From: Patescibacteria group bacterium
GTDB lineage: Bacteria > Patescibacteriota > Kazan-3B-28 > UBA10110
DNA: 64,000 bases
Assembly (NCBI GenBank): GCA_041659905.1
Contig: JBAZXK010000002.1
Span: forward strand, 128,593 to 192,592
Reading direction: 5' to 3'
The translations under genes were made by a program, and so were the position numbers. Position 1 is the first letter of the stretch. Each line of letters opens with the position of its first letter. Under the pieces are notes generated by a model, which was not told where the DNA came from, did no database searches, and was given only the letters and a program-made list of their open reading frames with translations. Positions 2,666-58,337 of this stretch are shown piece by piece.

Positions 2666-2685
2666 TACTTTAATCAAACACTGGG

Positions 2686-2907
2686 GTGCAAACAGAACGG
2701 TTAGTGGACCACCAAATTACAGTAGAAGTAGTGAGCCAGGATGGTCGACTAATTATTAGGTTGCCGGATGGGCAACAGTTACCGTGGCCAGTTTCTGATC
2801 CAGAGATGCGTCCGGGTACTTACTATCTCACCCTATCTCCTCTGCCCACATTACCAACCAAGACAGAACTAGCCAAATTGGTATTGCAAGAAATCCTTAA
2901 AGTATAA
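2686..2907 (+). CDS. Hypothetical small protein
   Basis: 73 aa ORF ending 2 nt before the downstream VanW-like gene; no recognisable motif. Confidence 0.35.
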   Translation: MQTERLVDHQITVEVVSQDGRLIIRLPDGQQLPWPVSDPEMRPGTYYLTLSPLPTLPTKTELAKLVLQEILKV

Positions 2908-2909
2908 AT

Positions 2910-4740: not shown

Positions 4741-5688
4741 ATGATCTATTGTTTATTTGGCAGTGATGAGTTTAGTGTGCGGGCCAGACTGCAAGCGCTA
4801 AGAGCGGAGGCAGAAAAAGCTACTCCCGGACTAGATTATTCATTTGTCGAAGCCAGTAAATGCAGTTTAGAAGAAATAGTTAATTTAATTGAAGCGCAAT
4901 CATTGATGGCAGCGCGAAAGTTTTTAGTGATCCAAAACTTGTTGGCGGACGGAGCGCCGGAAGTGCAGCAGTGGTTAACGCAGCGGCTAACTAAAATAGA
5001 CTCCGCAGACCCGACGGTCATAATTTTTATAGAAACCCAACCTCCAGCCAAAAAGAATCTTCTGGGCCAGCAGTTGGCGGCTTATCCGACAGAGCTCTAT
5101 GAACCGCTCAATTCCACTCAAACCAAACTTTGGCTGCAAAGCCAAACTAAGTTACGGGGATTGGCTCTCGATCCCCCGGTGGCTAACTATCTCCTAACTA
5201 ATTTTAGCGGCGATTTGCTTCGGCTAAGCAACGAACTGGATAAATTAGCTGCTTTTGCTGCGGGACAGAAAATTACCCTCATGATGACGCAAACATTGGC
5301 CGTTCCTTTGATTCATGATCATATTTTCCAAATGATTGATGCCCTGGCTCACAAAAAATTATCTTTAGCCAACCAGTTAATCAACACCCAGCTGGCTTTG
5401 GGCACAGCCGAACACGAACTCCTGGCCATGGTGGCTTATCAATTCCGCAATATTTTATTAGTACGGACATTAAGAGACCAAAAGCTGTCTCAGGCGCAAA
5501 TTGCTGCGCGGACAAAGCTACATCCGTTTGTGGTCCGCAAAAGCTGGGATTTTTCTGGAGATTTTTCCCTATCCCAACTGCAGAGGATCTTTTATTTACT
5601 GCAAAAGGTTGATGTAGCGATCAAGCAAAACCAAACTCCCCCACGGGTGGGGTTAGATATCCTGGCGGCGCAGATCGTTAGCTGTTAA
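4741..5688 (+). CDS. holA: DNA polymerase III delta subunit
   Basis: 315 aa; N-terminus MIYCLFGSDEFSVRARL and overall helical architecture typical of HolA. Confidence 0.7.
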   Translation: MIYCLFGSDEFSVRARLQALRAEAEKATPGLDYSFVEASKCSLEEIVNLIEAQSLMAARKFLVIQNLLADGAPEVQQWLTQRLTKIDSADPTVIIFIETQPPAKKNLLGQQLAAYPTELYEPLNSTQTKLWLQSQTKLRGLALDPPVANYLLTNFSGDLLRLSNELDKLAAFAAGQKITLMMTQTLAVPLIHDHIFQMIDALAHKKLSLANQLINTQLALGTAEHELLAMVAYQFRNILLVRTLRDQKLSQAQIAARTKLHPFVVRKSWDFSGDFSLSQLQRIFYLLQKVDVAIKQNQTPPRVGLDILAAQIVSC

Positions 5689-14850: not shown

Positions 14851-17064
14851 ATGGCAAAACCCCGAAAAAAGAAAAAACAGTACCGCTACCGTTCCTATCA
14901 GACCTCTAAATGGGTAGATGGACTGAATTTAGATTTGGAATTAGAGCCGCATATCTTACGCGAGATTGTGGCAGTATTGTTGATAGGGTTGGGAGTGTTT
15001 ACTTTACTGGCAATCTTAGGAGCAGCAGGCGGTGTCGGCAGTGTCTTCTTTACGGCTTTGCGGATAGGATTGGGTTGGACTAGTTTTATCTTGCCGGTAG
15101 TATTAGTCGGTGCTGGCCTAGCTTTGTTTTATCCAGTGAAATATAAATTTACCACTACAAATACTGTGGGCTTGATTATGTTAGTCGTGGCTCTGTCGGC
15201 TTTACTGCATTTGTTTGTTGTCCCAGAAAACAGTGTGGGCGTAGCCCAAAGTGGAGCCGGCGGGGGTTATATTGGACTCGGCATTGCCGCAGGGTTAATT
15301 AAACTGGTCGATTTCTGGGCAGCCTTGTTGATTGTCGGTATGGCACTAGCCATTGCTTTATTGTTTGTGTTTGGCCAACCTCTGCGCGAGCTTTATTATC
15401 GAGCCAAACTGAATGTGCCTGCTCTCCCCCATTCACCCAAATTGATTATTCATAATGCGGGAGCGAAGGGTGGCCGAGCGCAAAAAGAAGAAGATACCGA
15501 CACTAAAGAAAATCAGGAACAAATTAAAACAGATGAACCCGAATTAGAGGTAGCTAAGACCTTTGTGCGTAAGAAGGTATCCGAGCAAGAGCCAGATTTT
15601 GTGCCCCAACTCACTACTGCCGGCGATTTTAAGTTGCCCCCGCTCGATTTATTGAGCGACACGGTAACTAAAGTCGATAGCGGCAATATTCGCCAAAATG
15701 TCGGTATTATCCAAGAAGCTTTGGAAGATTTCGGTATTCAAGTGGAGATGTCAGAAGTAAATGTCGGCCCGACAGTCACGCAATACACCTTGAAACCGGC
15801 GGCGGGAGTTAAATTATCTAAGATCAGTAATTTATCTAATGATTTATCGCTCGCTTTGGCGGCCCATCCTATCAGAATTGAAGCACCTATTCCAGGGCGG
15901 TCGTTGGTCGGGATTGAAGTACCCAATAAGAAATCTTCGATGGTGCGCCTGCGCGAACTAATCGAATCTGATGCCTTCAAAGCGATCCGCTCCCCTTTGC
16001 GGATGCCCTTGGGACGCGATGTAGCGGGGACGCCGGTAGCCGCCGATTTAGTGCGGATGCCGCATTTACTGATTGCGGGAGCCACCGGTATGGGTAAAAG
16101 CGTTTTTCTTAATTCATTATTAGTAAGTTTGATTTATCAGAATTCTCCGGCGGATTTGAGATTGGTCCTGGTCGATCCGAAGCGGGTAGAGTTTACGGCC
16201 TACAACGATGTCCCGCACTTACTGGCGCCGGTGATTGTCGATCCCTACAAAACCATTAGTGCTTTAAAGTGGTTAGTGATGGAGATGGAGCGCCGCTATA
16301 AAGTTTTTGCCGATCATAAAGTGCGCTTTATCGAAGCGTTTAACCGGGAATATCCGGATGCCAAAATGCCTTACATTGTTTTAGCTATTGATGAGTTAGC
16401 TGATTTGATGGCAGTGTCGGCCCGCGAGGTCGAAGCTTACATTTGTCGTTTAGCGCAAATGTCTCGGGCAGTAGGCATCCACTTAGTCTTAGCCACCCAA
16501 AGACCTTCCGTGGATGTCATTACCGGGCTGATTAAAGCCAATTTCCCCTCCCGGCTAGCTTTTGCAGTTACCTCCGGCACCGATTCTCGCACTATTTTAG
16601 ATACGGTCGGAGCGGACAAATTGCTGGGTAATGGAGATATGCTCTTCCAACCTTCTGATGCCAGCAAGCCGCGCCGGATTCAAGGAGTGTTTGTAAGCGA
16701 TAAAGAGGTTAAAGCCGTGACCGATTTTGTGAAACAGCAAGACAATCCCCAATACATTAGCGAATTGATCGCTGAAACCAAAGAATCCAAGCAATCCGAG
16801 ATTGAATCCGAAGGCGATCCCTTATTAAATGAAGCTGTTGAATTGGTGGTGCGGACTGGCAAGGCCTCAGCCTCGTATTTGCAAAGAAGATTTCGGATTG
16901 GTTATGCGCGGGCGGCCCGCCTCCTAGATTTATTAGAAATGAAAGGAATTGTCGGTCCGGGCGAAGGGGCCAAACCGCGCGAGATTTTAATGTCGCGCAC
17001 CGAATTGGTGGGGCAAGCCGCCAGCCCGACTGAGGCGGAATATAAAGAGGGCGAAGACTATTAA
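14851..17064 (+). CDS. ftsK: DNA translocase FtsK/SpoIIIE
   Basis: N-terminal TM segments, linker, motor domain with Walker A GATGMGKS and C-terminal gamma (winged-helix) domain. Confidence 0.9.
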   Translation: MAKPRKKKKQYRYRSYQTSKWVDGLNLDLELEPHILREIVAVLLIGLGVFTLLAILGAAGGVGSVFFTALRIGLGWTSFILPVVLVGAGLALFYPVKYKFTTTNTVGLIMLVVALSALLHLFVVPENSVGVAQSGAGGGYIGLGIAAGLIKLVDFWAALLIVGMALAIALLFVFGQPLRELYYRAKLNVPALPHSPKLIIHNAGAKGGRAQKEEDTDTKENQEQIKTDEPELEVAKTFVRKKVSEQEPDFVPQLTTAGDFKLPPLDLLSDTVTKVDSGNIRQNVGIIQEALEDFGIQVEMSEVNVGPTVTQYTLKPAAGVKLSKISNLSNDLSLALAAHPIRIEAPIPGRSLVGIEVPNKKSSMVRLRELIESDAFKAIRSPLRMPLGRDVAGTPVAADLVRMPHLLIAGATGMGKSVFLNSLLVSLIYQNSPADLRLVLVDPKRVEFTAYNDVPHLLAPVIVDPYKTISALKWLVMEMERRYKVFADHKVRFIEAFNREYPDAKMPYIVLAIDELADLMAVSAREVEAYICRLAQMSRAVGIHLVLATQRPSVDVITGLIKANFPSRLAFAVTSGTDSRTILDTVGADKLLGNGDMLFQPSDASKPRRIQGVFVSDKEVKAVTDFVKQQDNPQYISELIAETKESKQSEIESEGDPLLNEAVELVVRTGKASASYLQRRFRIGYARAARLLDLLEMKGIVGPGEGAKPREILMSRTELVGQAASPTEAEYKEGEDY

Positions 17065-17161
17065 ATAATATGTCATCCTCGGGCTTGACCCGAGGATCCA
17101 GGCCTAGACTCGGCGAGGCTGGCAGGCCTGGATTCCCGATCGAGTCGGGAATGACAAAGAA
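17065..17161. repeat. GC-rich palindromic REP-like element; left arm of an inverted-repeat pair (partner 20297-20380)
   Basis: Nested hairpins gtcatcctcgggcttgacccgaggatgac and gattcccgatcgagtcgggaatc. The reverse complement of 20297-20407 is identical to 17038-17161 apart from a 24 nt indel. Confidence 0.8.
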
Positions 17162-17169
17162 TAAACAGT

Positions 17170-17664
17170 ATGGCTACAGAATCTTCTTTCGATATCGTGT
17201 CCGAAATTGATCAGCAAGAGCTCGCCAACGCTTTAGATCAAACCCGCCGTGAAATTGCCGGGCGCTATGATTTTAAAGATGCTCCTGTCGAGATTAAAGA
17301 GGAGAAAGATCAATTAGTCATTTTAGCGCCAACCGAGTTTAAATTTAATGCGGCGCTGGATATTATTAAATCAAAACTGATCCGGCGGCAACTGGATTTG
17401 CGGATTTTGGGAGAGAATAAGATCGAACCGGCCAGCGGCGGTGCCGTGCGCGTAACCATTCCCCTGGTCGCTGGCATATCGGCGGATCGGGCTAAGTTAA
17501 TCAATAAAATAATTCGAGATCAGTTGCCAAAAGTAAAGGCCACTATCCAAGGGGATACCATCAGGGTCAGTTCCAAAAGCCGCGACGACTTACAGGCAGT
17601 GATGGCTCTATTTAAAGACAAGCCGGAAGTTACTATCCCCCTCCAGTTTACTAATTATCGTTAA
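17170..17664 (+). CDS. yajQ: YajQ-family (UPF0234) nucleotide-binding protein
   Basis: 164 aa, MATESSFDIVSEIDQQELANALDQTRREIAGRYDFKD matches the YajQ N-terminus. Confidence 0.8.
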   Translation: MATESSFDIVSEIDQQELANALDQTRREIAGRYDFKDAPVEIKEEKDQLVILAPTEFKFNAALDIIKSKLIRRQLDLRILGENKIEPASGGAVRVTIPLVAGISADRAKLINKIIRDQLPKVKATIQGDTIRVSSKSRDDLQAVMALFKDKPEVTIPLQFTNYR

Positions 17665-20073: not shown

Positions 20074-20292
20074 TTAAAACAATAACGAGAGGGTGGTGGG
20101 AAGATCGGTGTAATTAATTACCACGGCGCTGGCGGCAAGTAATACTAGTAAAATTATCAAAACCCAAAACAGCCAATGCGCGCCATCTTCAATTTCATCA
20201 GGCAGAACAATAATATAATTGGTTTTTTTGGGAACCAATTTTTTTAGCTTCTGGACTTTCGATGATTTTTTGTCTGATTTAATTTCTGTCAT
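20074..20292 (-). CDS. Small hypothetical membrane protein
   Basis: 72 aa with one strong TM helix (HWLFWVLIILLVLLAASAVVINY). Confidence 0.4.
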   Translation of the reverse strand: MTEIKSDKKSSKVQKLKKLVPKKTNYIIVLPDEIEDGAHWLFWVLIILLVLLAASAVVINYTDLPTTLSLLF

Positions 20293-20296
20293 ATTG

Positions 20297-20380
20297 TTTC
20301 TTCTTTGTCATTCCCGACTCGATCGGGAATCCAGGCCTGGATCCTCGGGTCAAGCCCGAGGATGACATATTATTTAATAG
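20297..20380. repeat. Right arm of the inverted-repeat pair (inverted copy of 17065-17161); 20381-20407 additionally copies the last 27 nt of ftsK
   Basis: Reverse complement matches 17038-17161 except for the 24 nt indel. Confidence 0.8.
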
Positions 20381-20413
20381 TCTTCGCCCTCTTTATATTC
20401 TGTCTCAGTCAGG

Positions 20414-21127
20414 CTAGCGGCTTGTCTTGCCGAATTGAGCGGGCTTGCCTCGCTGCGAAGCAGCGGGTAAGATCATTATAACAAACTCGCCTTTAGGAAG
20501 TTTGCTGGCGAAGTAGTTAATTAGTTCGTTAGTCTCCCCTATTTTGACTTCTTCAAACTTTTTAGTGAGTTCGCGAAAAGCCAGAATCTTTCTTTGGCCT
20601 AAAAATTTTTCAATATCTCTCAAGGTGCGGCCTACCCGCATCGGTGATTCATAAATTAAAATGGGCAAATCCCAGCCGCTGATCTTTTTGAAGAGAGTTT
20701 CCCGGCCTTTCTTTTTCGGGAGGAATCCCAGGAAGATAAAATTATCAGCCGATTCCCCAGCGATGCTGAGGGCAGCGGTCAGGGCAGAAGGGCCAGGGAG
20801 AGCCATGACTTCAGCACCGGCAGCGCGAGCGGCCCCTACGAGCCTCCCGGCCGGGTCTTGGATACCGGGAGTACCCGCATCAGTGATCAAGGCAATGTTT
20901 TTGCCTTCCACTAGCTGCTCCACCAGGTAATCCAGTTTATTATCTCGGCTGTGTTGGTGATATGAAATCAGCGGAGTTCCAATATTATAGTGGTTTAGTA
21001 ATTTTTTACTAGTGCGCGTATCTTCGGCTGCGATCAAGTCAACTGTCCGCAAGGTTTCTAAAGCCCGCAGAGTAATATCTCCCAGGTTCCCGATCGGTGT
21101 GGCGACCACATAAATTTTTCCCATCAT
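20414..21127 (-). CDS. rsmI: 16S rRNA (cytidine1402-2'-O)-methyltransferase
   Basis: MMGKIYVVATPIGNLGDITLRALETLRTVDLIAAEDTRTSKKLL, tetrapyrrole-methylase fold typical of RsmI. Confidence 0.85.
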   Translation of the reverse strand: MMGKIYVVATPIGNLGDITLRALETLRTVDLIAAEDTRTSKKLLNHYNIGTPLISYHQHSRDNKLDYLVEQLVEGKNIALITDAGTPGIQDPAGRLVGAARAAGAEVMALPGPSALTAALSIAGESADNFIFLGFLPKKKGRETLFKKISGWDLPILIYESPMRVGRTLRDIEKFLGQRKILAFRELTKKFEEVKIGETNELINYFASKLPKGEFVIMILPAASQRGKPAQFGKTSR

Positions 21128-21246
21128 CTGTTAATTGAGTAAATAATTACGTATCCGTCATTCTGGGGAGCCCCTGGGGCGACTCCAGAATCGTACATAT
21201 TATTTATACGATCCTGGACGATGCCAGGATGACGGCCAAAAGAGTC

Positions 21247-22588: not shown

Positions 22589-22725
22589 AGGTCAGTATTT
22601 AGCGTTTAGCGTCTAGCATTTAAAATATAGTTCCTCCCCTCACGGAGGGGAGGTTAGGTGGGGAGTGATTAATCTTCTACTCCCACCTCCCCCTAACCCC
22701 TCCTCGGGCAGGAGGGGAATATTAT

Positions 22726-23429: not shown

Positions 23430-25574
23430 TTAGAGGGAGGCTGAGGTGGGAGCAACTATTTTTTTGATCGGAGCCAAATTGCGCGCCAATCGTTTGATAC
23501 CGAATTGTTGGAAGGCGGCGATTACTTCCAATTTATCTACGGTAATCACTTTACCGGGACCGAAATGCTTATGTTCGATCCAATCCCCAGGTTTAACCTT
23601 GAGGGCTGGGGAAACTTCTTCAATGGTAGTAGTGGTATGAGACATTTCGTTGCCGTCAACTTTTAACTCTTCTGGTATATCATCAATAAACCGAGATGGC
23701 AAACTGGGGGTAAAAGTGCCGAAGATCAGACGCTGGACCGTATAGATTAAATAAAGCTTTTTCTTGGCTCGGGTCATCCCGACATAACACAAGCGACGTT
23801 CTTCTTCTAATTCCTCTTCGTCTAGGATACTGCGGGAATGCGGAAACAGGTTTTCTTCCATTCCGGCAATAAACACATAATCAAATTCCAATCCTTTAGC
23901 CGAGTGCAAAGTCATTAAACTAACAGCGTTTTCGTCTGCATCATATCTATCAATATCTTGGATCAAACTGACTTCTTCCAAAAAGAGTGGTAAAGCGATT
24001 TTGATATCTAGAATATCATATTTTTCGATGACGCTCTTAAGTTCCCGGACGTTTTCAATGCGAGTTTCACCTTCAATAGTTTTATCATTAAGCCAAACCA
24101 AATAGCCAGTTTTTTCTAAGAGATAATCGAACAATTTAGAAAGCACTCGTTTACCCGACCTGGCTTCGGTAAATACTTGTCCCAGTTTTCGGAGTTCGGC
24201 TTGGGCTTTAGCTCCTACCGGCACATCTAACAGAATTTCGCTGGTCGGCTGATTGTGCACTGTGGCGTATTTGACTAGTTCTTCCCAGGTTTTCTCCCCT
24301 ACTCCCCGGGGCGGCAAATTGATGATTCGCTTTAAACTCAAATCATCCTGCGGGTTATTAATTACTTTCATAAACGCCAGCACATCTTTAATTTCTTTGC
24401 GATCGTAGAACCGAGTACCGCCGATGATCCGGTATGGGATGTTTTGTTGCAGAAAAGCTTCTTCTAAAGCGCGGGACTGGGCGTTGGTGCGATACAAAAT
24501 CACAAAATCATTAAAGTCGAGTTTAGGGTCAGCCGATTTGCGCTGGAGAATTTCTTGGATGATGTATTTTCCCTCCATCTCTTCGTTAAAGACTTGTTTG
24601 ATAGTGATCGGCTCGCCTTCGCCGTTTTTGGTCCAGAGTTCTTTTTCGCTCCGATTTTTGTTGGCGGAAATGACAGCTGCCGCGCTATTTAGGAGATTTT
24701 GGGTAGAACGGTAGTTTTCTTCCAGTTTAATGGTTTTGGCTTTTGGGTAATCTTTGTGGAAATTCAAGATATTGCGGTAATTCGCCCCCCGCCAACTGTA
24801 AATCGATTGCCAATCGTCGCCTACCACAAACAGATTCTTATGTTTTTCGGCCAACAACTTGGTTAATTGGTATTGGGCGGTGTTGGTATCTTGATACTCG
24901 TCCACCATAATATATTTAAATTTGGTTTGGTATTTCTTCAAAACATCCGGATTATTGCGGAATAAAACTACTGTTTGCATCAAGAGGTCGTCAAAATCCA
25001 AGCTGTTGTTGGCGAGGATAATTTCTTGGTAGCGGGGGTAAACTTTAGCCACTACTTTTTGAAAGTAGCCATACGCCATTTCGGGATATTCTTCGGCATT
25101 GATCAGTTCGCTTTTGGCGGAAGAGATGTAATTTAATACCGCGCCGGGGGCGAATTTCTGGGTGTCCACATTTAAGTCGTTCATGGCCTGTTTTACCGCT
25201 GTGGTTTGTTCGTCAGTGTCTAAAATAGTGAAATTTTGATTGCGGCCGATGTGTTGAATGTCGGCCCGCAAAATCCGCGAACAGAGCGAATGGAAGGTAC
25301 TGATATGAAAAGCTTTATCGGATTTTAACTTCAGCAGATGCATGATCCGTTGTTTCATCTCGCCGGCCGCCTTGTTGGTAAAGGTGACGGCCAAGATCTC
25401 GCTGGGGGTAGCTTTTTTGGTTTGCACCAAATAAGCCACCCGGGATGTGAGGGTTTTGGTTTTGCCGCTCCCGGCTCCCGCCAAGATCAGCACCGGCCCT
25501 TCCGTGGCCTGCACCGCTTTAATCTGCTCCGGGTTCAACTTGTCTAATAAATCTGTCATACAACCTTGTGTCAT
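23430..25574 (-). CDS. pcrA: ATP-dependent DNA helicase PcrA/UvrD
   Basis: Walker A ILAGAGSGKTKTLT, UvrD helicase motifs throughout, 714 aa. Confidence 0.9.
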   Translation of the reverse strand: MTQGCMTDLLDKLNPEQIKAVQATEGPVLILAGAGSGKTKTLTSRVAYLVQTKKATPSEILAVTFTNKAAGEMKQRIMHLLKLKSDKAFHISTFHSLCSRILRADIQHIGRNQNFTILDTDEQTTAVKQAMNDLNVDTQKFAPGAVLNYISSAKSELINAEEYPEMAYGYFQKVVAKVYPRYQEIILANNSLDFDDLLMQTVVLFRNNPDVLKKYQTKFKYIMVDEYQDTNTAQYQLTKLLAEKHKNLFVVGDDWQSIYSWRGANYRNILNFHKDYPKAKTIKLEENYRSTQNLLNSAAAVISANKNRSEKELWTKNGEGEPITIKQVFNEEMEGKYIIQEILQRKSADPKLDFNDFVILYRTNAQSRALEEAFLQQNIPYRIIGGTRFYDRKEIKDVLAFMKVINNPQDDLSLKRIINLPPRGVGEKTWEELVKYATVHNQPTSEILLDVPVGAKAQAELRKLGQVFTEARSGKRVLSKLFDYLLEKTGYLVWLNDKTIEGETRIENVRELKSVIEKYDILDIKIALPLFLEEVSLIQDIDRYDADENAVSLMTLHSAKGLEFDYVFIAGMEENLFPHSRSILDEEELEEERRLCYVGMTRAKKKLYLIYTVQRLIFGTFTPSLPSRFIDDIPEELKVDGNEMSHTTTTIEEVSPALKVKPGDWIEHKHFGPGKVITVDKLEVIAAFQQFGIKRLARNLAPIKKIVAPTSASL

Positions 25575-25633
25575 CCCGAGCGTAGTCGAGGGATCTTATA
25601 TATTACTCATATTAACTTATCCTATTATCCCAC

Positions 25634-31909: not shown

Positions 31910-31934
31910 TTCCCCTCCTGCCGGAGGAGGGGTT

Positions 31935-32018
31935 GGGGGAGGTGGGAGTATATTCCCCGAGCGGAGTCGAGCCTGCCTGCCGGTAGGCAGGGGGCTACCT
32001 TTGATTTTGTAAAATCAA
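31935..32018. repeat. 83-84 nt GC-rich palindromic repeat, copy 1 (second copy 57869-57951)
   Basis: ggggaggtgggagtatattccccgagcggagtcgagcctgcctgccggtaggcagggggctacctttgatttt gtaaaatcaat is identical in both copies apart from a 1 nt indel; it contains the palindromes gcctgcctgccggtaggcagg and ttgattttgtaaaatcaa. Confidence 0.85.
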
Positions 32019-32034
32019 TAAAACTTTTTTCTTA

Positions 32035-32282
32035 TTACCTTTCTAGAAAGGTAACACCAAAGTCCCGGGCAGTCGCCCTCGCTCTGCAGTAAATCATAAA
32101 ATCGCCTTCCTGCTCTCGCCCTAACAGACAACGGGCTACGCAACAGCGATTTTCTGTCTGCAGTACGCTCGGGCTCCAATGCCCGGTTGACGGAGAAAGA
32201 CAAAGAAATATAGTGATTTTGCTATTTGCTATCTGAATTTGCTCAATGGGGTTGAAAGACAAAGTCGTCCTCCTCCAATGGC
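32035..32282 (+). ncRNA. Candidate structured RNA / cis-regulatory element, copy 1 of 3 (unclassified family)
   Basis: Alignable with 35824-36000 and 57964-58185. It has a 5-prime hairpin (ttacctttc-taga-gaaaggtaa here; ttactttcc-cga-ggaaagtaa in the others, with compensatory CC/GG vs CT/AG changes), a conserved aaagtcYYSGGCAGTCG box, a covarying internal hairpin, and conserved ctcgRRctccaatgSCYgg plus cctcctccaaKGSc boxes. ORFs on either strand over it are not conserved between copies. Confidence 0.45.
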
Positions 32283-32388
32283 TTAGAGGAAGGAGAACCA
32301 CAGAAGTCAGGGATAGGAAGGGATTATTATTGACCAGGAGCTATTTTTTGGTATATTTAGATCACATTGACAATAAGGACGGTGAACC

Positions 32389-33189
32389 ATGATGGCCTAT
32401 ATCCCCCCGAAAGCTGATGAACTAGGCCATGGAGCCAATGGTTTATCAGACGAGGAAGATTATTTGGATCAACAAGCGAAAGTAGCGGAGCGCGTTTACA
32501 CTTACTTAGAAAAATTGCATCTTACTTATGAAGAAGAATTCGAAGGAATTATTACTGGAGAACTATTTAAGCGCATTGAGCAAGAGTGTGGAGTAGATGT
32601 CAAACAATTCGGTAAATATTTTGGAATTCTACGCAAGAATGAAGCTCCCATGTGCAACCTATTTTGCCCCGGGGTTATATTGGGATTGGTAGCAGATGCC
32701 CCTCAGCATAGACACGGCCGAGGTGACAACAATGAACTACTAGATACCCAACAGAAACGTGATAAGTACAGGCGCACCAGTTTAAAGCAGCATATAGATG
32801 AATGGCTACTGCTCAAACATATTTATGATCAGATTAATCCGGATAAACAGGACGAGAATACTGGTCGATCTATTTTGGCCGACACAAAAAATTTGATTAA
32901 TCAGATGCATGATTTGATTAACCCGATCATTGAACAAATCATCCACGACCCCTTAGTTATTCGAGAAATTCCAGAGTATCTACTGGAAAAGATAGGCGAA
33001 TTGGAAATGCGTGGTATGGCCAATTTGCGCAAATATGGATTGTTACCAATAGTGGTGCTCTATTATGAGATAGGCGTTACAGGTACGATAGGTAAACCTG
33101 GCAATAGAGTGGATTGGTTTAAAGCGGGTAAACCTACTCCGAAAGAATGGTTTGAAAGATGGGGGTTGACTCCACCAGAAGAAGCCTAG
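32389..33189 (+). CDS. Hypothetical protein (lineage-specific)
   Basis: 266 aa ORF directly downstream of structured element copy 1, followed by a strong terminator; it interrupts the usual yebC-ruvC adjacency. Confidence 0.55.
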   Translation: MMAYIPPKADELGHGANGLSDEEDYLDQQAKVAERVYTYLEKLHLTYEEEFEGIITGELFKRIEQECGVDVKQFGKYFGILRKNEAPMCNLFCPGVILGLVADAPQHRHGRGDNNELLDTQQKRDKYRRTSLKQHIDEWLLLKHIYDQINPDKQDENTGRSILADTKNLINQMHDLINPIIEQIIHDPLVIREIPEYLLEKIGELEMRGMANLRKYGLLPIVVLYYEIGVTGTIGKPGNRVDWFKAGKPTPKEWFERWGLTPPEEA

Positions 33190-33279: not shown

Positions 33280-33870
33280 ATGGAAACAATGAACAAGATT
33301 ATTTTAGGATTGGATCCGGGGACGGCGACAACTGGGTTTGGGGTAGTTAAAGATACTAAAGGCCAAGTTGAATATGTGGATTGCGGGTGTATCATTACTA
33401 CACTCAAAAGTATATCCCCAGCCCGCAAAGCTACGCTTAGCGTTGCTGGCGAGCCTGCCCGCAATGCTCCCGTCACAACTTCGCAGATGTTGGCGGGTGC
33501 TGGCGGGCCTGCCGAACGACTGCTGACCATTCAGAAATCTCTGGAAATTTTAATTAAAAAATATCAGCCGGATATTTTAGCAGTAGAGAAATTGTTTTTT
33601 ACCAAGAATATTACTACCGCCATTTCAGTAGCAGAAGCCCGCGGGGTAATTTTGGTCACAGCCGCCAAACATAACTTGGAAATTGCGGAATATACTCCTT
33701 TGCAAGTGAAACAGACCCTGACCGGATATGGTAAAGCCGATAAGCAACAGATACAGCGGATGGTTAAATCTATCCTGAAGCTTCAAAGCATCCCGAAGCC
33801 GGATGATGCCGCCGACGCCTTAGCGATAGCGATTTGTGCGGTGCACCACACAGTTAAAGTTGGATGTTAG
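33280..33870 (+). CDS. ruvC: Crossover junction endodeoxyribonuclease RuvC (with ~32 aa in-frame insertion)
   Basis: ILGLDPGTATTGFGVV N-terminus, C-terminal DDAADALAIAICA motif; a GC-rich A/G/P-rich insertion at nt ~33408-33505 relative to canonical RuvC. Confidence 0.85.
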   Translation: METMNKIILGLDPGTATTGFGVVKDTKGQVEYVDCGCIITTLKSISPARKATLSVAGEPARNAPVTTSQMLAGAGGPAERLLTIQKSLEILIKKYQPDILAVEKLFFTKNITTAISVAEARGVILVTAAKHNLEIAEYTPLQVKQTLTGYGKADKQQIQRMVKSILKLQSIPKPDDAADALAIAICAVHHTVKVGC

Positions 33871-35786: not shown

Positions 35787-35823
35787 TTTTGATACTCTGA
35801 CAGAGTATTGCAGAATTTTTCTT

Positions 35824-36000
35824 GTTACTTTCCCGAGGAAAGTAACCAAAGTCTTCGGGCAGTCGTCCTCACTCGGTATTTAACCAAAAATCTACCTTTC
35901 CGCTCTCGTCGGTGTAACCGACTTTGCAGCGGTAATTTTTGGAATACCTATCGCTCGGACTCCAATGCCCGGATGGGAACAAAAGCCCTCCTCCAATGCC
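35824..36000 (+). ncRNA. Candidate structured RNA / cis-regulatory element, copy 2 of 3
   Basis: ~80% identical to copy 3 over ~175 nt with paired substitutions in helices (gtcggt-gtaa-accgac vs gccggt-atat-accggc; ggta...tacc stems conserved). Loop 1 (aaccaaaaatc) is complementary to loop 2 (atttttgg). Confidence 0.45.
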
Positions 36001-36128
36001 AGGACTGAAGATAAAAACATCTCTCCTTCGATGGTTGGTGATAGAATAGCTTGACGCAAAGAGGATTTTTACATAGTATGCTCATACAGATCAACTGATC
36101 TGATGTTCTTTAAAGGGAGCTAAATCTA

Positions 36129-49404: not shown

Positions 49405-49478
49405 GCGGGTATCGTATAGTGGCAATACCCCAGTTTTCCAAACTGGCGCCGGGGGTCCGATTCCCCCTACCCGCTCCA
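49405..49478 (+). tRNA. tRNA-Gly (anticodon TCC), CCA encoded
   Basis: Manual cloverleaf: acceptor gcgggta/tacccgc, D-stem gtat/atac, anticodon stem ccagt/actgg with loop ttTCCaa, T-arm ggggg-tccgatt-ccccc, CCA. Confidence 0.85.
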
Positions 49479-49639
49479 GCGTCGCGGTGGACTCCGCTTT
49501 ATCGCCTCACTATGCGTAAGGCTCATAAACGCTTTGTCACCACTCCTCTCCAAATTACAAACAGGTCTGCGACCTTCAGTTTGCGATTTGGGTGGGGAAA
49601 GAGATAGCGCACCGGTTTAGGCCAGTTTAATTAAAATTC

Positions 49640-50137
49640 ATGGTTGATCCTAATACTATTCATGATCGGTTAATTAACCTGCTTGATATCAATCAGGTCG
49701 AGTACAAACTCTTTAACCATCCGGCAGCATTGACTTATGAAGATTTAGCTGCAGTCCAGAAATCAACTGGTTTCTTTGGGACCGAGGCCAAATGTATGGT
49801 ATTAAAGGTAAGCGATAAGTTTATCGTCTATATCACATTGCAAGGCAGTCGGGTTAATTTCAACGCCGTGAAGACAGAATTAGGAGGAGCTAAAGTTCGG
49901 CTGGCCACTGCCGAGGAATTAGCCGAATATTTTGGTGCCCAACCCGGTTGTGCTTACCCATTTGCTTTTGACTCCCAATACGACATTTATGTAGATCCTA
50001 AGATATACGAGCAGGAATGGCTCTTATTTAGTCCCGTTTTACCTACCGAGACAATCCAAGCTAAAGGAGAAGATCTAAGGAGAGTATGGGCCTCTCTAGA
50101 TAATCAGGTCTCGGAAGTAATAAATTTCAATCAGTAA
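49640..50137 (+). CDS. YbaK/ProX-like aminoacyl-tRNA deacylase domain protein
   Basis: 165 aa; family-level resemblance to YbaK/prolyl-tRNA-synthetase-associated editing domains. Confidence 0.45.
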   Translation: MVDPNTIHDRLINLLDINQVEYKLFNHPAALTYEDLAAVQKSTGFFGTEAKCMVLKVSDKFIVYITLQGSRVNFNAVKTELGGAKVRLATAEELAEYFGAQPGCAYPFAFDSQYDIYVDPKIYEQEWLLFSPVLPTETIQAKGEDLRRVWASLDNQVSEVINFNQ

Positions 50138-50215
50138 CCATATCAGTCAAAAACTTGGGGATAAGTGATTAGGTTAAATCTGGGGTTTATTACGCCTAGA
50201 GCTGACTTTTAATTA

Positions 50216-50244
50216 TTGACAGTCCCGTTTTTTTATGATATAAT
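50216..50244 (+). promoter_or_regulatory. Consensus sigma70 promoter (TTGACA-17-TATAAT)
   Basis: ttgaca 50216-50221, 17 nt spacer, tataat 50239-50244; upstream of 50289 CDS. Confidence 0.6.
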
Positions 50245-50288
50245 AGTTATTAACAGGCAAGCCAAATAAAAATCAAAAAACAAACCAA

Positions 50289-50651
50289 ATGATGTTTAAT
50301 AAGCTAAAACGAGTTCTGCTTGAGTCGGGCTATCGGGTAATCCTGACGAGCAATGTCTCTCAAAGTCCGAAAAAGGGCTTTGCCCGGGGCATCAAGGGTT
50401 ATATCGTACCGGATGACCTGACGATTTACATCAATAAGAATATTGGAGTAAATGATCGGGTGATTACTTTGGTACACGAATTATTGCACGAGATTTACCC
50501 AGCTTGGACAGAAGGCAAAGTTAATCAAACCTCTAAAAGAATTTTTCAAAAGCTAACTGTTCCCCAACTGGGTTTCCTCCAGTTTTTTATCATGGTGCCA
50601 ACCGAAATTAGAGCAATGCTCCGTTCCAACAACCTGTCTTCTGTCTGCTAA
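50289..50651 (+). CDS. Hypothetical protein
   Basis: 120 aa ORF downstream of a consensus promoter. Confidence 0.45.
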   Translation: MMFNKLKRVLLESGYRVILTSNVSQSPKKGFARGIKGYIVPDDLTIYINKNIGVNDRVITLVHELLHEIYPAWTEGKVNQTSKRIFQKLTVPQLGFLQFFIMVPTEIRAMLRSNNLSSVC

Positions 50652-50883
50652 AACAATATACTCAAAATGGTGGATGAGCTCTGGCGCCGTGGACAGAGCT
50701 TTTTTATTTTTTCCAATCGTCATTCCGGTAAGTCCGCTTTGCGGACGCATCCAGAATCGTATAATAATAAATCTATACGATCCTGGACGAAGCCAGCCTG
50801 CCTGCCGGTAGGCAGGGACGACAATATAAGGAAAACATTGTCGCTTAAGGTATATTGATATTAGTTGAAAAATTGATTATTGT

Positions 50884-50958
50884 GCCCCTGTAGTTCAATG
50901 GACAGAACAAGAGACTTCTAATCTCTCGATCGAGGTTCGATCCCTCGCGGGGGCGCCA
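50884..50958 (+). tRNA. tRNA-Arg (anticodon TCT), CCA encoded
   Basis: Acceptor gcccctg/cgggggc, D-arm gttc-aatggaca-gaac, anticodon loop ctTCTaa, T-arm cgagg-ttcgatc-cctcg. Confidence 0.85.
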
Positions 50959-51036
50959 TCCCAGTCCCGTGTTGTATAACACAGGACGGGATGAGTCCTG
51001 CATCGCATGGTGCAGGGCCAGGCGTGAATTAACATG

Positions 51037-51111
51037 GTGGGCGTAGCTCAACGGCAGAGCATCTGTTTGTGGAACAGATGGTTATGGGTTCGAATCCCAT
51101 CGTCCACCCCA
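51037..51111 (+). tRNA. tRNA-His (anticodon GTG) with encoded G-1 and CCA
   Basis: G-1 + gtgggcg acceptor pairing with cgtccac, anticodon loop ttGTGga, T-arm atggg-ttcgaat-cccat; a hairpin spacer separates it from tRNA-Arg. Confidence 0.85.
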
Positions 51112-51121
51112 CAAAAATTTT

Positions 51122-51613
51122 ATGGATATACGGATTAGACTAATTGAAGAAGCTGAATTAGAGTCTGTCAGCCAAGTCTTTACCGAAGCATTTAATAATG
51201 CCGGCGTCGGAGAGAACTGGAGTGTAGAGCGGGCTATCAAGTATTTAAGATATTTATATCAACATCAGCCTGATCTGTTTTTTATTGCGGAAGCCGAAGG
51301 AGAAATTGTGGGGGGTGTAGCCGGAGTGATCAGGACATGGGGAACCGGTAATTATTTGGGTGAGTGGGAATTATTTGTGAAGCCGGAATATCAGAAACAA
51401 GGGATAGCTGCCAAACTGCTAACTAATATTGTGCGCAGTGCTATTGATAACCACGCCATAACCATGTTTAGTGGATTAGCTTTTAGCGGCAAGGCATTTC
51501 CGATGGAGTGGTACAAACAGATAGGTTTTCATCCCTCCGGCTGGGTGCATATCGAAGCTGATGCGAAAGAGCTGTTAAGTAATCTTATTGCTGATCATGG
51601 CCAAAATCAATAA
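51122..51613 (+). CDS. GNAT-family N-acetyltransferase
   Basis: 163 aa; acetyl-CoA binding region (QKQGIAAKLLTNIV) typical of GNAT. Confidence 0.65.
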   Translation: MDIRIRLIEEAELESVSQVFTEAFNNAGVGENWSVERAIKYLRYLYQHQPDLFFIAEAEGEIVGGVAGVIRTWGTGNYLGEWELFVKPEYQKQGIAAKLLTNIVRSAIDNHAITMFSGLAFSGKAFPMEWYKQIGFHPSGWVHIEADAKELLSNLIADHGQNQ

Positions 51614-52001
51614 ATCTAAATTCAGCGAAGCGGTGCATAAATTGGTTAGAGCTATTCCGCAAGGCAAGGTGATGACTTACGGACAGGTGGCGGCGTGTTT
51701 GGGGTACCCCCGAGCGGCCCAGTATGTCGGCTGGGTGCTACATTGGTCGGATTTTAATGATGTCCCCTACCAGCGGGTGGTGAATCGGTTTGGCGGGCTG
51801 GCTTCTGGCTATACACGCGGCGGACAGCTGGCCCACAAATTTGATTTAGAAGAAGAAGAAGGGATTAAAGTGCGCGATGATTTTACGATTGATTTGGAAA
51901 AGTACCTGTGGCAGCCGCCGCAGAAGCTGATTCCCAGACTAGATAATGTTACACTATTGGAGGAGCTGCCTTTCTCTGCTAGATTAGTTGGGAAACAGTA
52001 A
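51600..52001 (+). CDS. Alkyltransferase-like (ATL) protein / MGMT-family DNA-binding domain without active-site Cys
   Basis: YGQVAACLGYPRAAQYVGWVL resembles the Ada/Ogt C-terminal domain, but PRAAQ replaces PCHRV; probable start MAKINKSKF at 51600 (the listed ORF begins at 51588). Confidence 0.6.
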   Translation, partial: AKINKSKFSEAVHKLVRAIPQGKVMTYGQVAACLGYPRAAQYVGWVLHWSDFNDVPYQRVVNRFGGLASGYTRGGQLAHKFDLEEEEGIKVRDDFTIDLEKYLWQPPQKLIPRLDNVTLLEELPFSARLVGKQ

Positions 52002-52071
52002 CTTTTAGTAATTGGTCAATTGAGAATTGGGAATGGGTTAAATTAGGTAATTACGCCGTTAGGCGTTATAT

Positions 52072-52146
52072 GCCCTCGTAGTTCAATGGACAGAACGTAG
52101 GATTCCGGATCCTAAGGTGTAGGTTCGATTCCTACCGAGGGTACCA
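52072..52146 (+). tRNA. tRNA-Arg (anticodon CCG), CCA encoded
   Basis: Acceptor gccctcg/cgagggt (terminal G-U), D-arm gttc-aatggaca-gaac, anticodon loop ttCCGga, T-arm gtagg-ttcgatt-cctac. Confidence 0.8.
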
Positions 52147-52213
52147 AGTTTGATAAGAGTTCACCTGTGAGCGAAACCATAAAAGGATTGCCCAAGTTTT
52201 TAAAGTCTCTGTT

Positions 52214-53290
52214 ATGAATGATCAGAAAGTTGTTCTAGAAAAAACTTTTTCTAGAAAGTATAACCTATTCGGAGGTTATATGTGGTATCAGGCCGACTGT
52301 GTGCAAAATGAATATATTCTGGGATTTGATTTAAATCACTCTTTAACTATTTTTCCAAAAGAGGGACCCACGACGTGCTGGTACTATACCGATGAAATTG
52401 CGCATGCTATAGAGCTGATTGTTGCCAAATCAAATTCCGATCCCCTGTTTTGGGAGAACGTCAAAAAAGACTTCTATTTTTACTGGAATAAGATTCTTCC
52501 TTATTTAAAAAAAGACAAAACCATCCAAAACCTAGAAGAACTCAAAAATTATTACTCCACAGCAATTAAATTTTATGGTCCAGATAGTATAGTCATTGTT
52601 TCTCCGGGTGCAGCTGCTCTAGGGGATAATTTTAAAGAAATTGCCCAAAGCTTGAGAAATGAATCACATTATTTTGTGAATAACGTCCCTGATGTTTATG
52701 CAGATTATTTTTGTTCGGCTTATCCTCAATACAAAAAGATTGTAGATGTTTTATTGCCAGAAGAGGTGTTTAACATAGACAAAATTACTCCTGAAATTAT
52801 TGCCGAAGCTGAGAAACGAGCCCAAGAAGGATGTTTTTTGCTAAATGGAAGGCCGTATTGCCTATCAGAATTGAATCAAGTATTAGCAACGAATGGGTAT
52901 GAGTTAAAGGATCCTAGCCAAATTTCTGAGGCGGATCAACGATCTAGTCTGGCGATTAAAGGAGTAGTCGCTCATCCAGGAATCGTTACGGGGCGCGTAT
53001 CTAAAGTAATGTATTACCAAGACATCGGTAAGGTAAAGGAAGGTGATATTTTAGTATCCCCAATGACTATGCCTAAATTCTTACCGGCTATGAGAAAAGC
53101 CGCTGCTTTTATTACTGATGAAGGAGGTATCACTTGCCATGCAGCTATAATCGCTCGGGAACTAAGCAAGCCCTGCATAATAGGTACTAAAGTTGCTACT
53201 AGCCTTTTAGAAGATGGGGATCTAGTTAAAGTCGATGCGGTCAAGGGGGAAGTGATAATAATCGAAAAGACTCACGTTGAGATCAGTTAA
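52214..53290 (+). CDS. Protein with C-terminal PEP-utilising-enzyme mobile (phosphohistidine swivel) domain
   Basis: C-terminus ITDEGGITCHAAIIARELSKPCIIGT matches the PEP-utilizers swivel domain with a conserved His; N-terminal 250 aa has no recognisable ATP-grasp/PEP-binding domain. Confidence 0.6.
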   Translation: MNDQKVVLEKTFSRKYNLFGGYMWYQADCVQNEYILGFDLNHSLTIFPKEGPTTCWYYTDEIAHAIELIVAKSNSDPLFWENVKKDFYFYWNKILPYLKKDKTIQNLEELKNYYSTAIKFYGPDSIVIVSPGAAALGDNFKEIAQSLRNESHYFVNNVPDVYADYFCSAYPQYKKIVDVLLPEEVFNIDKITPEIIAEAEKRAQEGCFLLNGRPYCLSELNQVLATNGYELKDPSQISEADQRSSLAIKGVVAHPGIVTGRVSKVMYYQDIGKVKEGDILVSPMTMPKFLPAMRKAAAFITDEGGITCHAAIIARELSKPCIIGTKVATSLLEDGDLVKVDAVKGEVIIIEKTHVEIS

Positions 53291-53425
53291 ACCGACAGAT
53301 GGCAGCATAGATTAACAGAAAAAATTCTGTTGGGTTATTATTAGCTGGCTACAGTGGACAACAGGTGGTCAAAAAGCTACAATTCACAAGTAGAAAGACA
53401 TTAGCATCAACTTCTAGAAGTATCT

Positions 53426-53500
53426 GGGTTGTTAGCTCAATGGTAGAGCAGCTGCCTCTTAAGCAGTTGGTTACAGGTTCGAATCCTGTACAGCCCACCA
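53426..53500 (+). tRNA. tRNA-Lys (anticodon CTT), CCA encoded
   Basis: Acceptor gggttgt/acagccc, D-arm gctc-aatggta-gagc, anticodon loop ctCTTaa, T-arm acagg-ttcgaat-cctgt. Confidence 0.85.
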
Positions 53501-53501
53501 C

Positions 53502-53576
53502 GGCGCCATCGTCTAGAGGTTAGGACGCCAGGTTTTCATCCTGGTAACCGGGGTTCGATTCCCCGTGGCGCTACCA
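53502..53576 (+). tRNA. tRNA-Glu (anticodon TTC), CCA encoded
   Basis: Acceptor ggcgcca/tggcgct, D-arm gtct-agaggtta-ggac (Glu-typical), anticodon loop ttTTCat, T-arm cgggg-ttcgatt-ccccg. Confidence 0.85.
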
Positions 53577-57788: not shown

Positions 57789-57868
57789 ATTATTCCCCTC
57801 CTGCTCCTCGAGTCTGAGCCTCGGAGTCGAAGACCGGAGCCTGCCTGCCGGTAGGCAGGGAGGGGTGA

Positions 57869-57951
57869 GGGGAGGTGGGAGTATATTCCCCGAGCGGAGT
57901 CGAGCCTGCCTGCCGGTAGGCAGGGGGCTACCTTTGATTTGTAAAATCAAT
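57869..57951. repeat. 83 nt GC-rich palindromic repeat, copy 2 (identical to 31935-32018); preceded by a partial extra copy of its core at 57820-57865
   Basis: Same sequence as copy 1, including the gcctgcctgccggtaggcagg and ttgatttgtaaaatcaa palindromes. Confidence 0.85.
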
Positions 57952-57963
57952 CAACCATTTTCT

Positions 57964-58185
57964 GTTACTTTCCCGAGGAAAGTAACCAAAGTCTTCTCGC
58001 AGTCGCTCTGGCTTGGTATTTAGCTAAAAATTACCTGGCTGTTCTCGCCGGTATATACCGGCTCCACGCACTGGTAATTTTTGGAATACCTAACACTCGA
58101 GCTCCAATGGCTGGAATGTAAAATCAAGACATCCCTCCTCCAAGGGCCGGTTAGATGAAAAGACGCTCAAACTCCAATGGCCACG
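57964..58185 (+). ncRNA. Candidate structured RNA / cis-regulatory element, copy 3 of 3
   Basis: 5-prime hairpin gttactttcc-cga-ggaaagtaac identical to copy 2; conserved boxes as in copies 1-2; fused downstream of the 83 nt repeat exactly as in copy 1. Confidence 0.45.
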
Positions 58186-58337
58186 AAATACAACGGTCGT
58201 TGTATTTCGTGGCCTAGTATACCATCCGTCATTCTGGGGAGCTCATGGGGCGACTCCAGAATCTTTCCTGGTTTTTTTATTGGTTTTAGATGTAGAATAT
58301 AAATATTCATTATATTTATTAACAAATAGGTATTATC

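Follow-up and report, generated by a model that had tools for sequence, protein, structure and literature searches.

The repeat of about 83 nucleotides (nt) that occurs twice in the window (the whole 64-kb stretch of DNA that was analysed) is not one element but the right-hand part of a 110-155-nt intergenic mosaic. At both loci a protein gene (YebC at one, glutaredoxin at the other) precedes the mosaic and a copy of a conserved structured RNA follows it. This RNA belongs to a genuine family of a Kazan-like Patescibacteria clade, with several copies per genome. As judged from alignments with related species, the near-identity of the two window leaders most likely arose by non-reciprocal recombination (gene conversion). 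We consider it probable that the whole explanation holds, namely a mosaic of palindromes whose leader part was homogenised by conversion, RNA bodies that evolved apart from it, REP/BIME-like GC-rich hairpins and an RNA that is co-transcribed. The survey extended over 64 kb of the genome and some 20 related loci, which are given L numbers below.

Anatomy of the repeat and of the leader mosaic

The two copies of the repeat (Table 1) differed by a single T in a T-run and matched at 83 of 84 aligned positions (~99%). A sequence-only reading of this DNA had described such a near-identical pair, each member followed after about 15 nt by a structured element, and both statements were borne out: the first hairpin (P0) of the element began 14 nt downstream of the repeat at the YebC locus (P0 at 32034) and 12 nt downstream at the glutaredoxin (Grx) locus (P0 at 57964). 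It had also reported a further partial copy of the repeat core in front of the second locus. The 21-mer GCCTGCCTGCCGGTAGGCAGG was found at exactly four window sites (31971, 50796, 57839, and 57904), where shuffled sequences predict none, so this additional copy (57839-57859) is real. Likewise, the second copy of the structured element was confirmed to have no GC-rich module upstream.

Both repeat loci were recovered unchanged on separate contigs of an independent ENA assembly, indicating that the repeat is no assembly artefact. Logan short-k contigs ended 31 and 41 nt past the two stop codons, which is the start of the shared sequence. No strain polymorphism was detected in the module among these contigs; those of ENA were identical, and the Logan contigs broke at the repeats. 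Leftward of the identical stretch, a weaker likeness of the two loci reached the stop codons, with TTCCCCTCCTGC directly past TAA at both. The whole homology of the two loci runs from the stop codon to the AT-rich box, and the 83 nt are its near-identical part.

The mosaic is ordered as hairpin A, an arm composed of G-rich sequence, TATA(A/T)T and a C-run (the G-rich arm), a REP-like hairpin B containing a 20-nt palindrome, and an AT-rich box. Hairpin A was placed 3-7 nt past the upstream stop codon. The G-rich arm of the first locus finished in GAGTATATT and then CCCC. The mosaic folded strongly at the two loci, with z = -3.0 and -3.6. Among the loci then fetched, TTTTRTAAAATCAAT of the AT box was found in YebC-linked leaders only, and copy 3 and L040 carried variants of the box in their Grx-linked leaders. 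At the orthologous loci, TTTTRTAAAATCAA, which makes up the right half of the AT-rich palindrome, was kept.

Table 1. Features of the two repeat loci, of the three RNA copies and of related elements, in window coordinates
Feature	Position	Strand	Remarks
Inverted doublet of hairpin A + G-rich arm	22633-22720	-	Between two minus-strand genes; no structured RNA
Hairpin A (CCCCTCCTGCC GG AGGAGGGG)	31912-31932	+	Perfect 8-bp GC stem, MFE fold; 3 nt after YebC stop
G-rich arm / TATATT / C-run (TTGGGGGAGGTGGGAGTATATTCCCC)	31933-31958	+	Identical stretch starts at 31936
83-nt repeat, YebC locus	31936-32019	+	84 nt
Hairpin B, REP-like (CCCCGAGCGGAGTCGAG..GGGGCTACC)	31955-31999	+	Lineage-specific insertion; missing from L035, L037, and L040 leaders
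20-nt palindrome CCTGCCTGCCGGTAGGCAGG nested in hairpin B	31972-31991	+	Four exact window copies, none expected
AT-rich box TTTGATTTTGTAAAATCAAT	32000-32019	+	Right end of identical stretch; two-locus identity stops right after
Structured RNA core, copy 1	32031-32187	+	Covariance-model hit, 124 bits
3' tail of copy 1	32188-32300	+	Motif copies GCTCAATGG at 32241-32249 and CTCCAATG at 32273-32280; homologous tail in L017 and L037
AT-rich hairpin / weak promoter-like site TTGATA-16-CAGAAT	35789-35816	+	Upstream of copy 2; no GC-rich module
Structured RNA core, copy 2	35821-35973	+	Covariance-model hit, 159.6 bits
Tail of copy 2	to about 36040	+	CTCCAATG at 35960 and 35991
Solo 20-nt palindrome	50797-50816	+	Upstream of tRNA gene; no structured RNA nearby; homologous empty site 21202-21237
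Hairpin A of second locus	57795-57865	+	Split by ~49-nt insertion holding a 20-nt palindrome copy (57840-57859)
83-nt repeat, glutaredoxin locus	57869-57951	+	83 nt; G-rich arm + hairpin B with palindrome (57905-57924) + AT box (57932-57951)
Structured RNA core, copy 3	57961-58115	+	Covariance-model hit, 151 bits
Tail of copy 3		+	Motif copies at ~58141-58152 and 58172-58179
Further REP-like hairpin in copy 3 tail	58224-58265	+	Repeat family D5, as 21153-21194; missing from L040 orthologous tail

Each GC-rich sub-module was also found without the structured RNA, and sub-modules recurred in the relatives' loci L005, L016, L021, L025, L035, L037, and L041. Hairpins of the A type lay directly past stop codons at 22697-22717(-) and in L021, L025, and L037, and the G-rich arm occurred without any RNA at 22674-22692(-), in L005/L021 and in L023/L025. 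Hairpin A together with the G-rich arm ended a DedA-like gene in L021 and L025, again with no RNA, and at 22674-22720(-) the pair followed a stop codon directly and formed half of the inverted doublet. Hairpin B lacked the inner palindrome in L007 and L041; a copy was located upstream of a 5S rRNA gene in L016, and a relative of it was detected at window positions 25569-25595.

The 20-nt palindrome was further observed in L035, in L037 and twice in L041, once within an RNA loop and once at an unrelated site. This loop of L041 belongs to the structured element, and a loop of L037 carried the reverse-complement form. Two pairs of filled and empty sites were obtained for the palindrome, the solo copy at 50797-50816 against 21202-21237, and hairpin B of the window against hairpin B of L007 and L041. 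In both pairs the difference was exactly 20 nt and no duplication was seen.

About ten REP-like loci were present within the 64-kb window, all of them extragenic except one inside RuvC. A 90-nt (30-codon) GC-rich in-frame insertion (ARKATLSVAGEPARNAPVTTSQMLAGAGGP) was observed at 33424-33513 within the RuvC gene (33280-33870). The inserted DNA folds into hairpins, differs from CCTGCCTGCCGGTAGGCAGG and was missing from four orthologues that were otherwise 86-91% identical; it looks like a REP-like element tolerated within an essential gene. Six plus-strand tRNA genes clustered at 49405-53573, and REP-like hairpins, including the solo 20-nt palindrome (50720-50816), lay just upstream of one of them. 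In addition, inverted repeats of ~160 nt (17014-17172 and 20290-20424; 94-96% complementary) bounded a 3.1-kb segment, and their arms held GTCATCC../GTCATTCCCGA.. REP-like hairpins and an apparent duplicated gene 3' end.

The structured RNA family and its transcription

Compensatory base pairs across homologues, on one strand, mark the element as a structured RNA gene. Across 19 distinct sequences, standard pairing was found in 97.4% of cells, compared with 32-56% when the partners were slid. Changes on both sides were observed at 21 of 32 pairs, and none of 500 shuffles reached the observed covariation score. Eight U-G cells at pair 68-371 fit the plus-strand fold. The core consists of a 5' hairpin, P0, followed by the linker CAAAGUC and a long irregular hairpin. 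The latter contains two conserved internal loops, one with GCAGUCG opposite CUCCAAUG and the other with UUCUCG opposite CUUCAC. Downstream of the core, 0-3 extra copies of CUCNNNCUCCAAUGGCC were present.

With its filters switched off, the covariance model revealed no fourth copy anywhere in the window. A strict pattern derived from the three window copies matched five GTDB species representatives, all labelled Patescibacteria or Saccharibacteria. The metagenome pattern search gave 12 true loci among 21 hits; the other nine (L009, L012-L015, L018, L019, L022, and L024) had matched GC-rich coding DNA by chance. The covariance model then recovered diverged copies at orthologous sites. A relaxed pattern gave 22 hits in the viral collection IMG/VR, none of which was confirmed by the covariance model. 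In Rfam 15, only tRNAs reached the gathering score in the window, and nothing relevant was obtained for copy 1 at E<=10 or for six other RNA loci at E<=1. An identity with 6S, SRP, RNase P, or integron attC was assessed through Rfam only, where no match was found. Literature searches returned no description of these repeats or of the RNA in Patescibacteria.

A second, diverged class of the RNA, with CCAGUUCG... replacing GCAGUCG..., was observed in L035 (6867-7034), L037 (10875-11132), L040 (4284-4458), L041 (~4838-5025) and L007 (6894-7105). It has the same architecture and shows compensatory changes in P1, and its hairpin loops carry inserted palindromes in L037 and L041.

The orientation of the RNA was always the same as that of the neighbouring genes. 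In at least seven other loci, P0 started 0-12 nt past a stop codon (that of AstE-like, FtsK, BipA, NusG, or other genes), and neither a promoter nor a terminator belonging to the RNA itself was detected. For these two reasons, the simplest reading would be that the RNA is co-transcribed with the upstream gene. In L016, a copy (2632-2917, minus strand) was located 16 nt downstream of a 5S rRNA gene, a distance that suggests co-transcription with an rRNA operon; the hairpin B copy of L016 stands in front of this very 5S gene. Between the RNA tails and the downstream ORFs, good sigma-70-like promoters were observed at 32330-32357 (TTGACC-16-TATATT with TG) and 36051-36079 (TTGACG-17-TAGTAT), so that these ORFs probably have promoters of their own.

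Invariant CUCCAAUGG recurs in a conserved internal loop and in tandem copies, and our leading guess is therefore that the molecule may be a protein-binding RNA with repeated CUCCAAUGG sites. Some of the CUCCAAUGG copies lay within CCUCC-rich sequence resembling an anti-Shine-Dalgarno. The invariant A-GUC loop may resemble loop A of the hairpin ribozyme. Because the RNA is multicopy, lies behind stop codons and a 5S gene, and combines two invariant loops with variable 3' CUCCAAUGG modules, it may act as an RNP scaffold or a protein sponge, or possibly as a catalytic RNA.

Origin of the two near-identical leaders

Homologues of YebC and GDH led to close relatives, in which the same loci were kept. 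YebC was 87% identical in L035 and 85% in L037, and GDH was 88% identical in L040, which represents the Grx locus. The YebC-linked leader of L035 and L037 consisted of hairpin A, GGGGGAGG(T/A)GGGAGTATA(G/A) and TTTT(A/G)TAAAATCAATAAAAC, followed by the RNA. The Grx-linked leader of L040 was equivalent (hairpin A, GGGAGTATA(A/G), TTTTRTAAA(A)TCAA), again followed by the RNA and then by the same downstream gene as in the window. A clean gap of ~42 nt was present in L035, L037, and L040 where both window loci have hairpin B and the palindrome, and the G-rich arm was kept in all three. Having hairpin A, the G-rich arm and the AT box at the same loci without hairpin B, the related species show that the simple leader is old at both loci and that hairpin B and the palindrome within it were added later by a REP-type insertion. 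Another relative at the Grx locus, L041, had a different leader composed of hairpin B and another REP.

As the relatives have the simpler leader, free of the 42-nt hairpin insertion, at both loci, the near-identity of the two window leaders is most likely the product of gene conversion. Starting from an old simple leader at the YebC and glutaredoxin loci, a REP-type insertion of hairpin B and palindrome would have entered one leader, and a short, recent conversion tract would then have carried that leader to the other locus. The tract would end on the right at ...AAATCAAT and on the left near 57866-57868, immediately outside the identical stretch. Past the AT box, the sequence on the right is TAAAAC in copy 1, as in L035 and L037, and CAACC in copy 3, nearer to CCCAA of L040; on the left of the box, copy 3 does not differ from copy 1 and is of the YebC-locus type, being more like L035 than L040. 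The donor was likely the YebC-linked leader. This inference draws on a single Grx-locus ortholog with this leader type (L040).

The RNA bodies stayed outside the leader conversion; their own recombination was with other members of the family. Copy 1 was 88% identical to its ortholog in L035 over the first 40 nt, but the remainder matched L035 at only 58% and L010, which lies behind YceG in another genome, at 89%. The RNA bodies are thus mosaics that recombine. After YebC, only REPs and no RNA were present in L034 (YebC 93% identical) and L038. The FtsK-YajQ spacer contained the RNA in L006 (1315-1467) and a 90-nt remnant, possibly half of P0 plus a palindrome, in the close relative L037 (244-334), which indicates that individual copies are lost rapidly. 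Between RNA copy 1 and RuvC, the window carries a 266-aa ORF (32389-33189) with no Pfam match. A search of 5.8 billion proteins for homologues returned only the ORF itself, so it gave no help with synteny. In relatives, YebC was followed directly by RuvC, with or without the RNA between them and with no such ORF.

Three other accounts of the two loci were weighed. According to the sequence-only reading, repeat and structured element move or duplicate as a unit, either as a MITE-like element or as a promoter/leader cassette. The identical junction at two loci 26 kb apart speaks for such a unit, as do the recurrence of the leader-plus-RNA arrangement in related genomes and the position of hairpin B in front of RNA copies in L007 and L041 as well. 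However, identity dropped from ~99% to 64% precisely where the AT box ends. The RNA cores of copies 1 and 3 were 64% identical, those of copies 1 and 2 68.5% and those of copies 2 and 3 79.5%, the core of copy 3 being nearest to that of copy 2, which has no module. Both loci are old, with orthologs in other species, and the sub-modules are found solo. Leaders of 21 RNA copies were compared: the leader with hairpin A and AT box was found in 5/21 and hairpin B in 4/21, whereas 12/21 matched none of the four GC-rich leader motifs and had no AT box upstream, four of these 12 having a different REP-like hairpin there. The association of the leader with the RNA is real and old at the two loci and their orthologs; RNA copy 2 and the majority of copies elsewhere have no such module. 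Alignments of empty and filled sites, which served as the check for target-site duplications at the module ends, revealed none, and no terminal inverted repeats were seen at these ends on inspection. A MITE, which would be a unit of 100-400 nt bounded by both features, was rejected on both of these grounds, together with the fact that the identical stretch ends inside a larger homologous leader. We regard a joint mobile unit as very improbable. A single large segmental duplication, the other origin considered for the pair, was also rejected: the genes on either side are not related between the loci, the first being flanked by YebC and an ORFan and the second by glutaredoxin and a secreted protein, and the adjoining RNA cores have diverged to the extent given above.

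Conversion would also be dispensable if hairpin B with its nested palindrome had been inserted independently at the same target in two similar, pre-existing leaders. Both elements insert at many sites, and in three genomes hairpin B adjoins ...TTTGAT in front of RNA copies, suggesting that it prefers this target. Yet the ancestral leader that flanks the insertion is identical too, over 19 nt to its left and, bar one indel, 20 nt to its right, while the Grx ortholog in L040 differs from those flanks at many positions; the nested palindrome would moreover require two insertions at the same place. Independent insertion is thus the weaker alternative and seems unlikely to us. In a further account, the module would function as promoter and 5' leader for the RNA gene, its identity at the two loci being kept by selection, and the AT palindrome would act as a protein-binding operator. 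In its favour, GAGTATA(A/T)T and TTTTRTAAAATCAA were kept across species at both loci, and GAGTATAAT, a perfect -10 hexamer, was kept in L037, L040, L021, and L025. The AT box stands at a fixed distance from P0. A TTGAT motif occupies the same position in front of copy 2, at a site scored by the scan as a weak promoter, and in L010, which shares the upstream arrangement of copy 2 behind YceG. Given the conserved -10-like hexamer and the fixed spacing of the AT box, there may be a small chance that the module works as a non-canonical promoter. The consensus scan, on the other hand, called no sigma-70-like promoter with -35 and -10 hexamers spaced by 16-18 nt within 31935-32030 or 57869-57960, the TATATT of the module has no -35 partner, and in the window the ~42-nt hairpin insertion parts TATATT from the AT box. 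The G-rich/TATAAT arm is not followed by a co-oriented gene or RNA in L021 and L025 and is followed by a gene at 22674(-), and the RNA copies that start 0-12 nt past a stop codon have no space for such a leader. Palindromic symmetry of the AT box is gone in L037 and L040, and for this reason the operator is not favoured. The promoter account was not borne out by the consensus scan and appears very improbable.

The GC-rich hairpins would behave like REP/BIME elements, as suggested by their location past stop codons, their occurrence between genes without the RNA and the lack of a promoter call. They might serve as 3'-end hairpins that stabilise or punctuate the upstream message, or they might be neutral selfish insertions; we infer that they are not a promoter cassette.

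Significance and comparison with known systems

Patescibacteria have very small genomes, and little is known of their non-coding RNA and repeats. Our findings suggest that such genomes tolerate dense, nested REP-like palindromes, even in RNA hairpins and in an essential recombination gene, and that short leaders can become homogenised between distant loci. The most interesting item is the RNA, an uncatalogued and well-supported structured family with several copies per genome; the 83-nt repeat is explained by known kinds of process. It is conceivable, though we would not put it at even chances, that the RNA represents a new class of functional RNA restricted to the Kazan-like clade and, jointly, that CCTGCCTGCCGGTAGGCAGG is an ultra-small mobile sequence homing into hairpin loops. 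If so, the homing of CCTGCCTGCCGGTAGGCAGG into the loops of REP hairpins and of functional RNA leaves no duplication, and a mobile CCTGCCTGCCGGTAGGCAGG together with frequent gene conversion would drive concerted evolution of the RNA leaders.

The GC-rich elements resemble the REP/BIME of Enterobacteria and the REPINs of Pseudomonas (PMC3116915), which are short, GC-rich imperfect palindromes, extragenic and often just past stop codons. Here, too, imperfect palindromes of ~20-40 nt with stable hairpins (hairpin A, hairpin B and the 20-nt palindrome) were found extragenically at many unrelated loci. As in those systems (PMC3116915), they form mosaics with other short motifs (the leaders) and a REPIN-like inverted doublet (22633-22720), and they occur at many loci and in related genomes. 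The sequences, however, are unrelated, and in the present case an exact 20-nt palindrome nests in hairpin loops, including those of a structured RNA. This palindrome was counted four times in the 64 kb surveyed; REP families have tens to hundreds of copies across a whole genome. No description of REP families for Patescibacteria was found in the searched literature.

Rickettsia palindromic elements (RPEs) are palindromic repeats of 100-150 nt, belonging to defined families, that insert into functional genes without destroying them. The in-frame insertion of 90 nt in RuvC and the palindromes within RNA hairpin loops are reminiscent of RPEs; the elements described here differ in being 20-45 nt long and unrelated in sequence.

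A TIGR array was also considered. Such arrays consist of tandem ~36-nt units with two 8-12-nt spacers and UG/CCA boxes, and they lie beside a Tas gene with a Nop domain (PMC12045711). The RNA did not fit this description (PMC12045711), having 1-4 motif copies spaced at 29-41 nt, with CCA and UG only 1 nt apart. Neighbouring genes with a family match were housekeeping genes, the rest had no Pfam match, and no Nop domain was found.

Enterobacterial sRNAs derived from 3'-UTRs, such as CpxQ and SroC, are single-copy and gene-specific and end at the mRNA terminator. The RNA described here is similar to them in starting right past a stop codon, in being co-oriented with the upstream gene and in having no evident promoter of its own. 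It differs in forming a multi-copy family whose members follow unrelated genes and a 5S rRNA gene and for which no terminator was detected.

The Neisseria intergenic mosaic or Correia elements and the pneumococcal BOX lie between genes as modular mosaics whose sub-units vary in number; they are transcribed together with adjacent genes and homogenised by recombination. Correia elements have terminal inverted repeats and TA duplications, whereas the present module has neither. Compared with the Neisseria and BOX elements, the structured RNA is set apart by covariation across species and by the conservation of its loci, which typical selfish repeats do not show.
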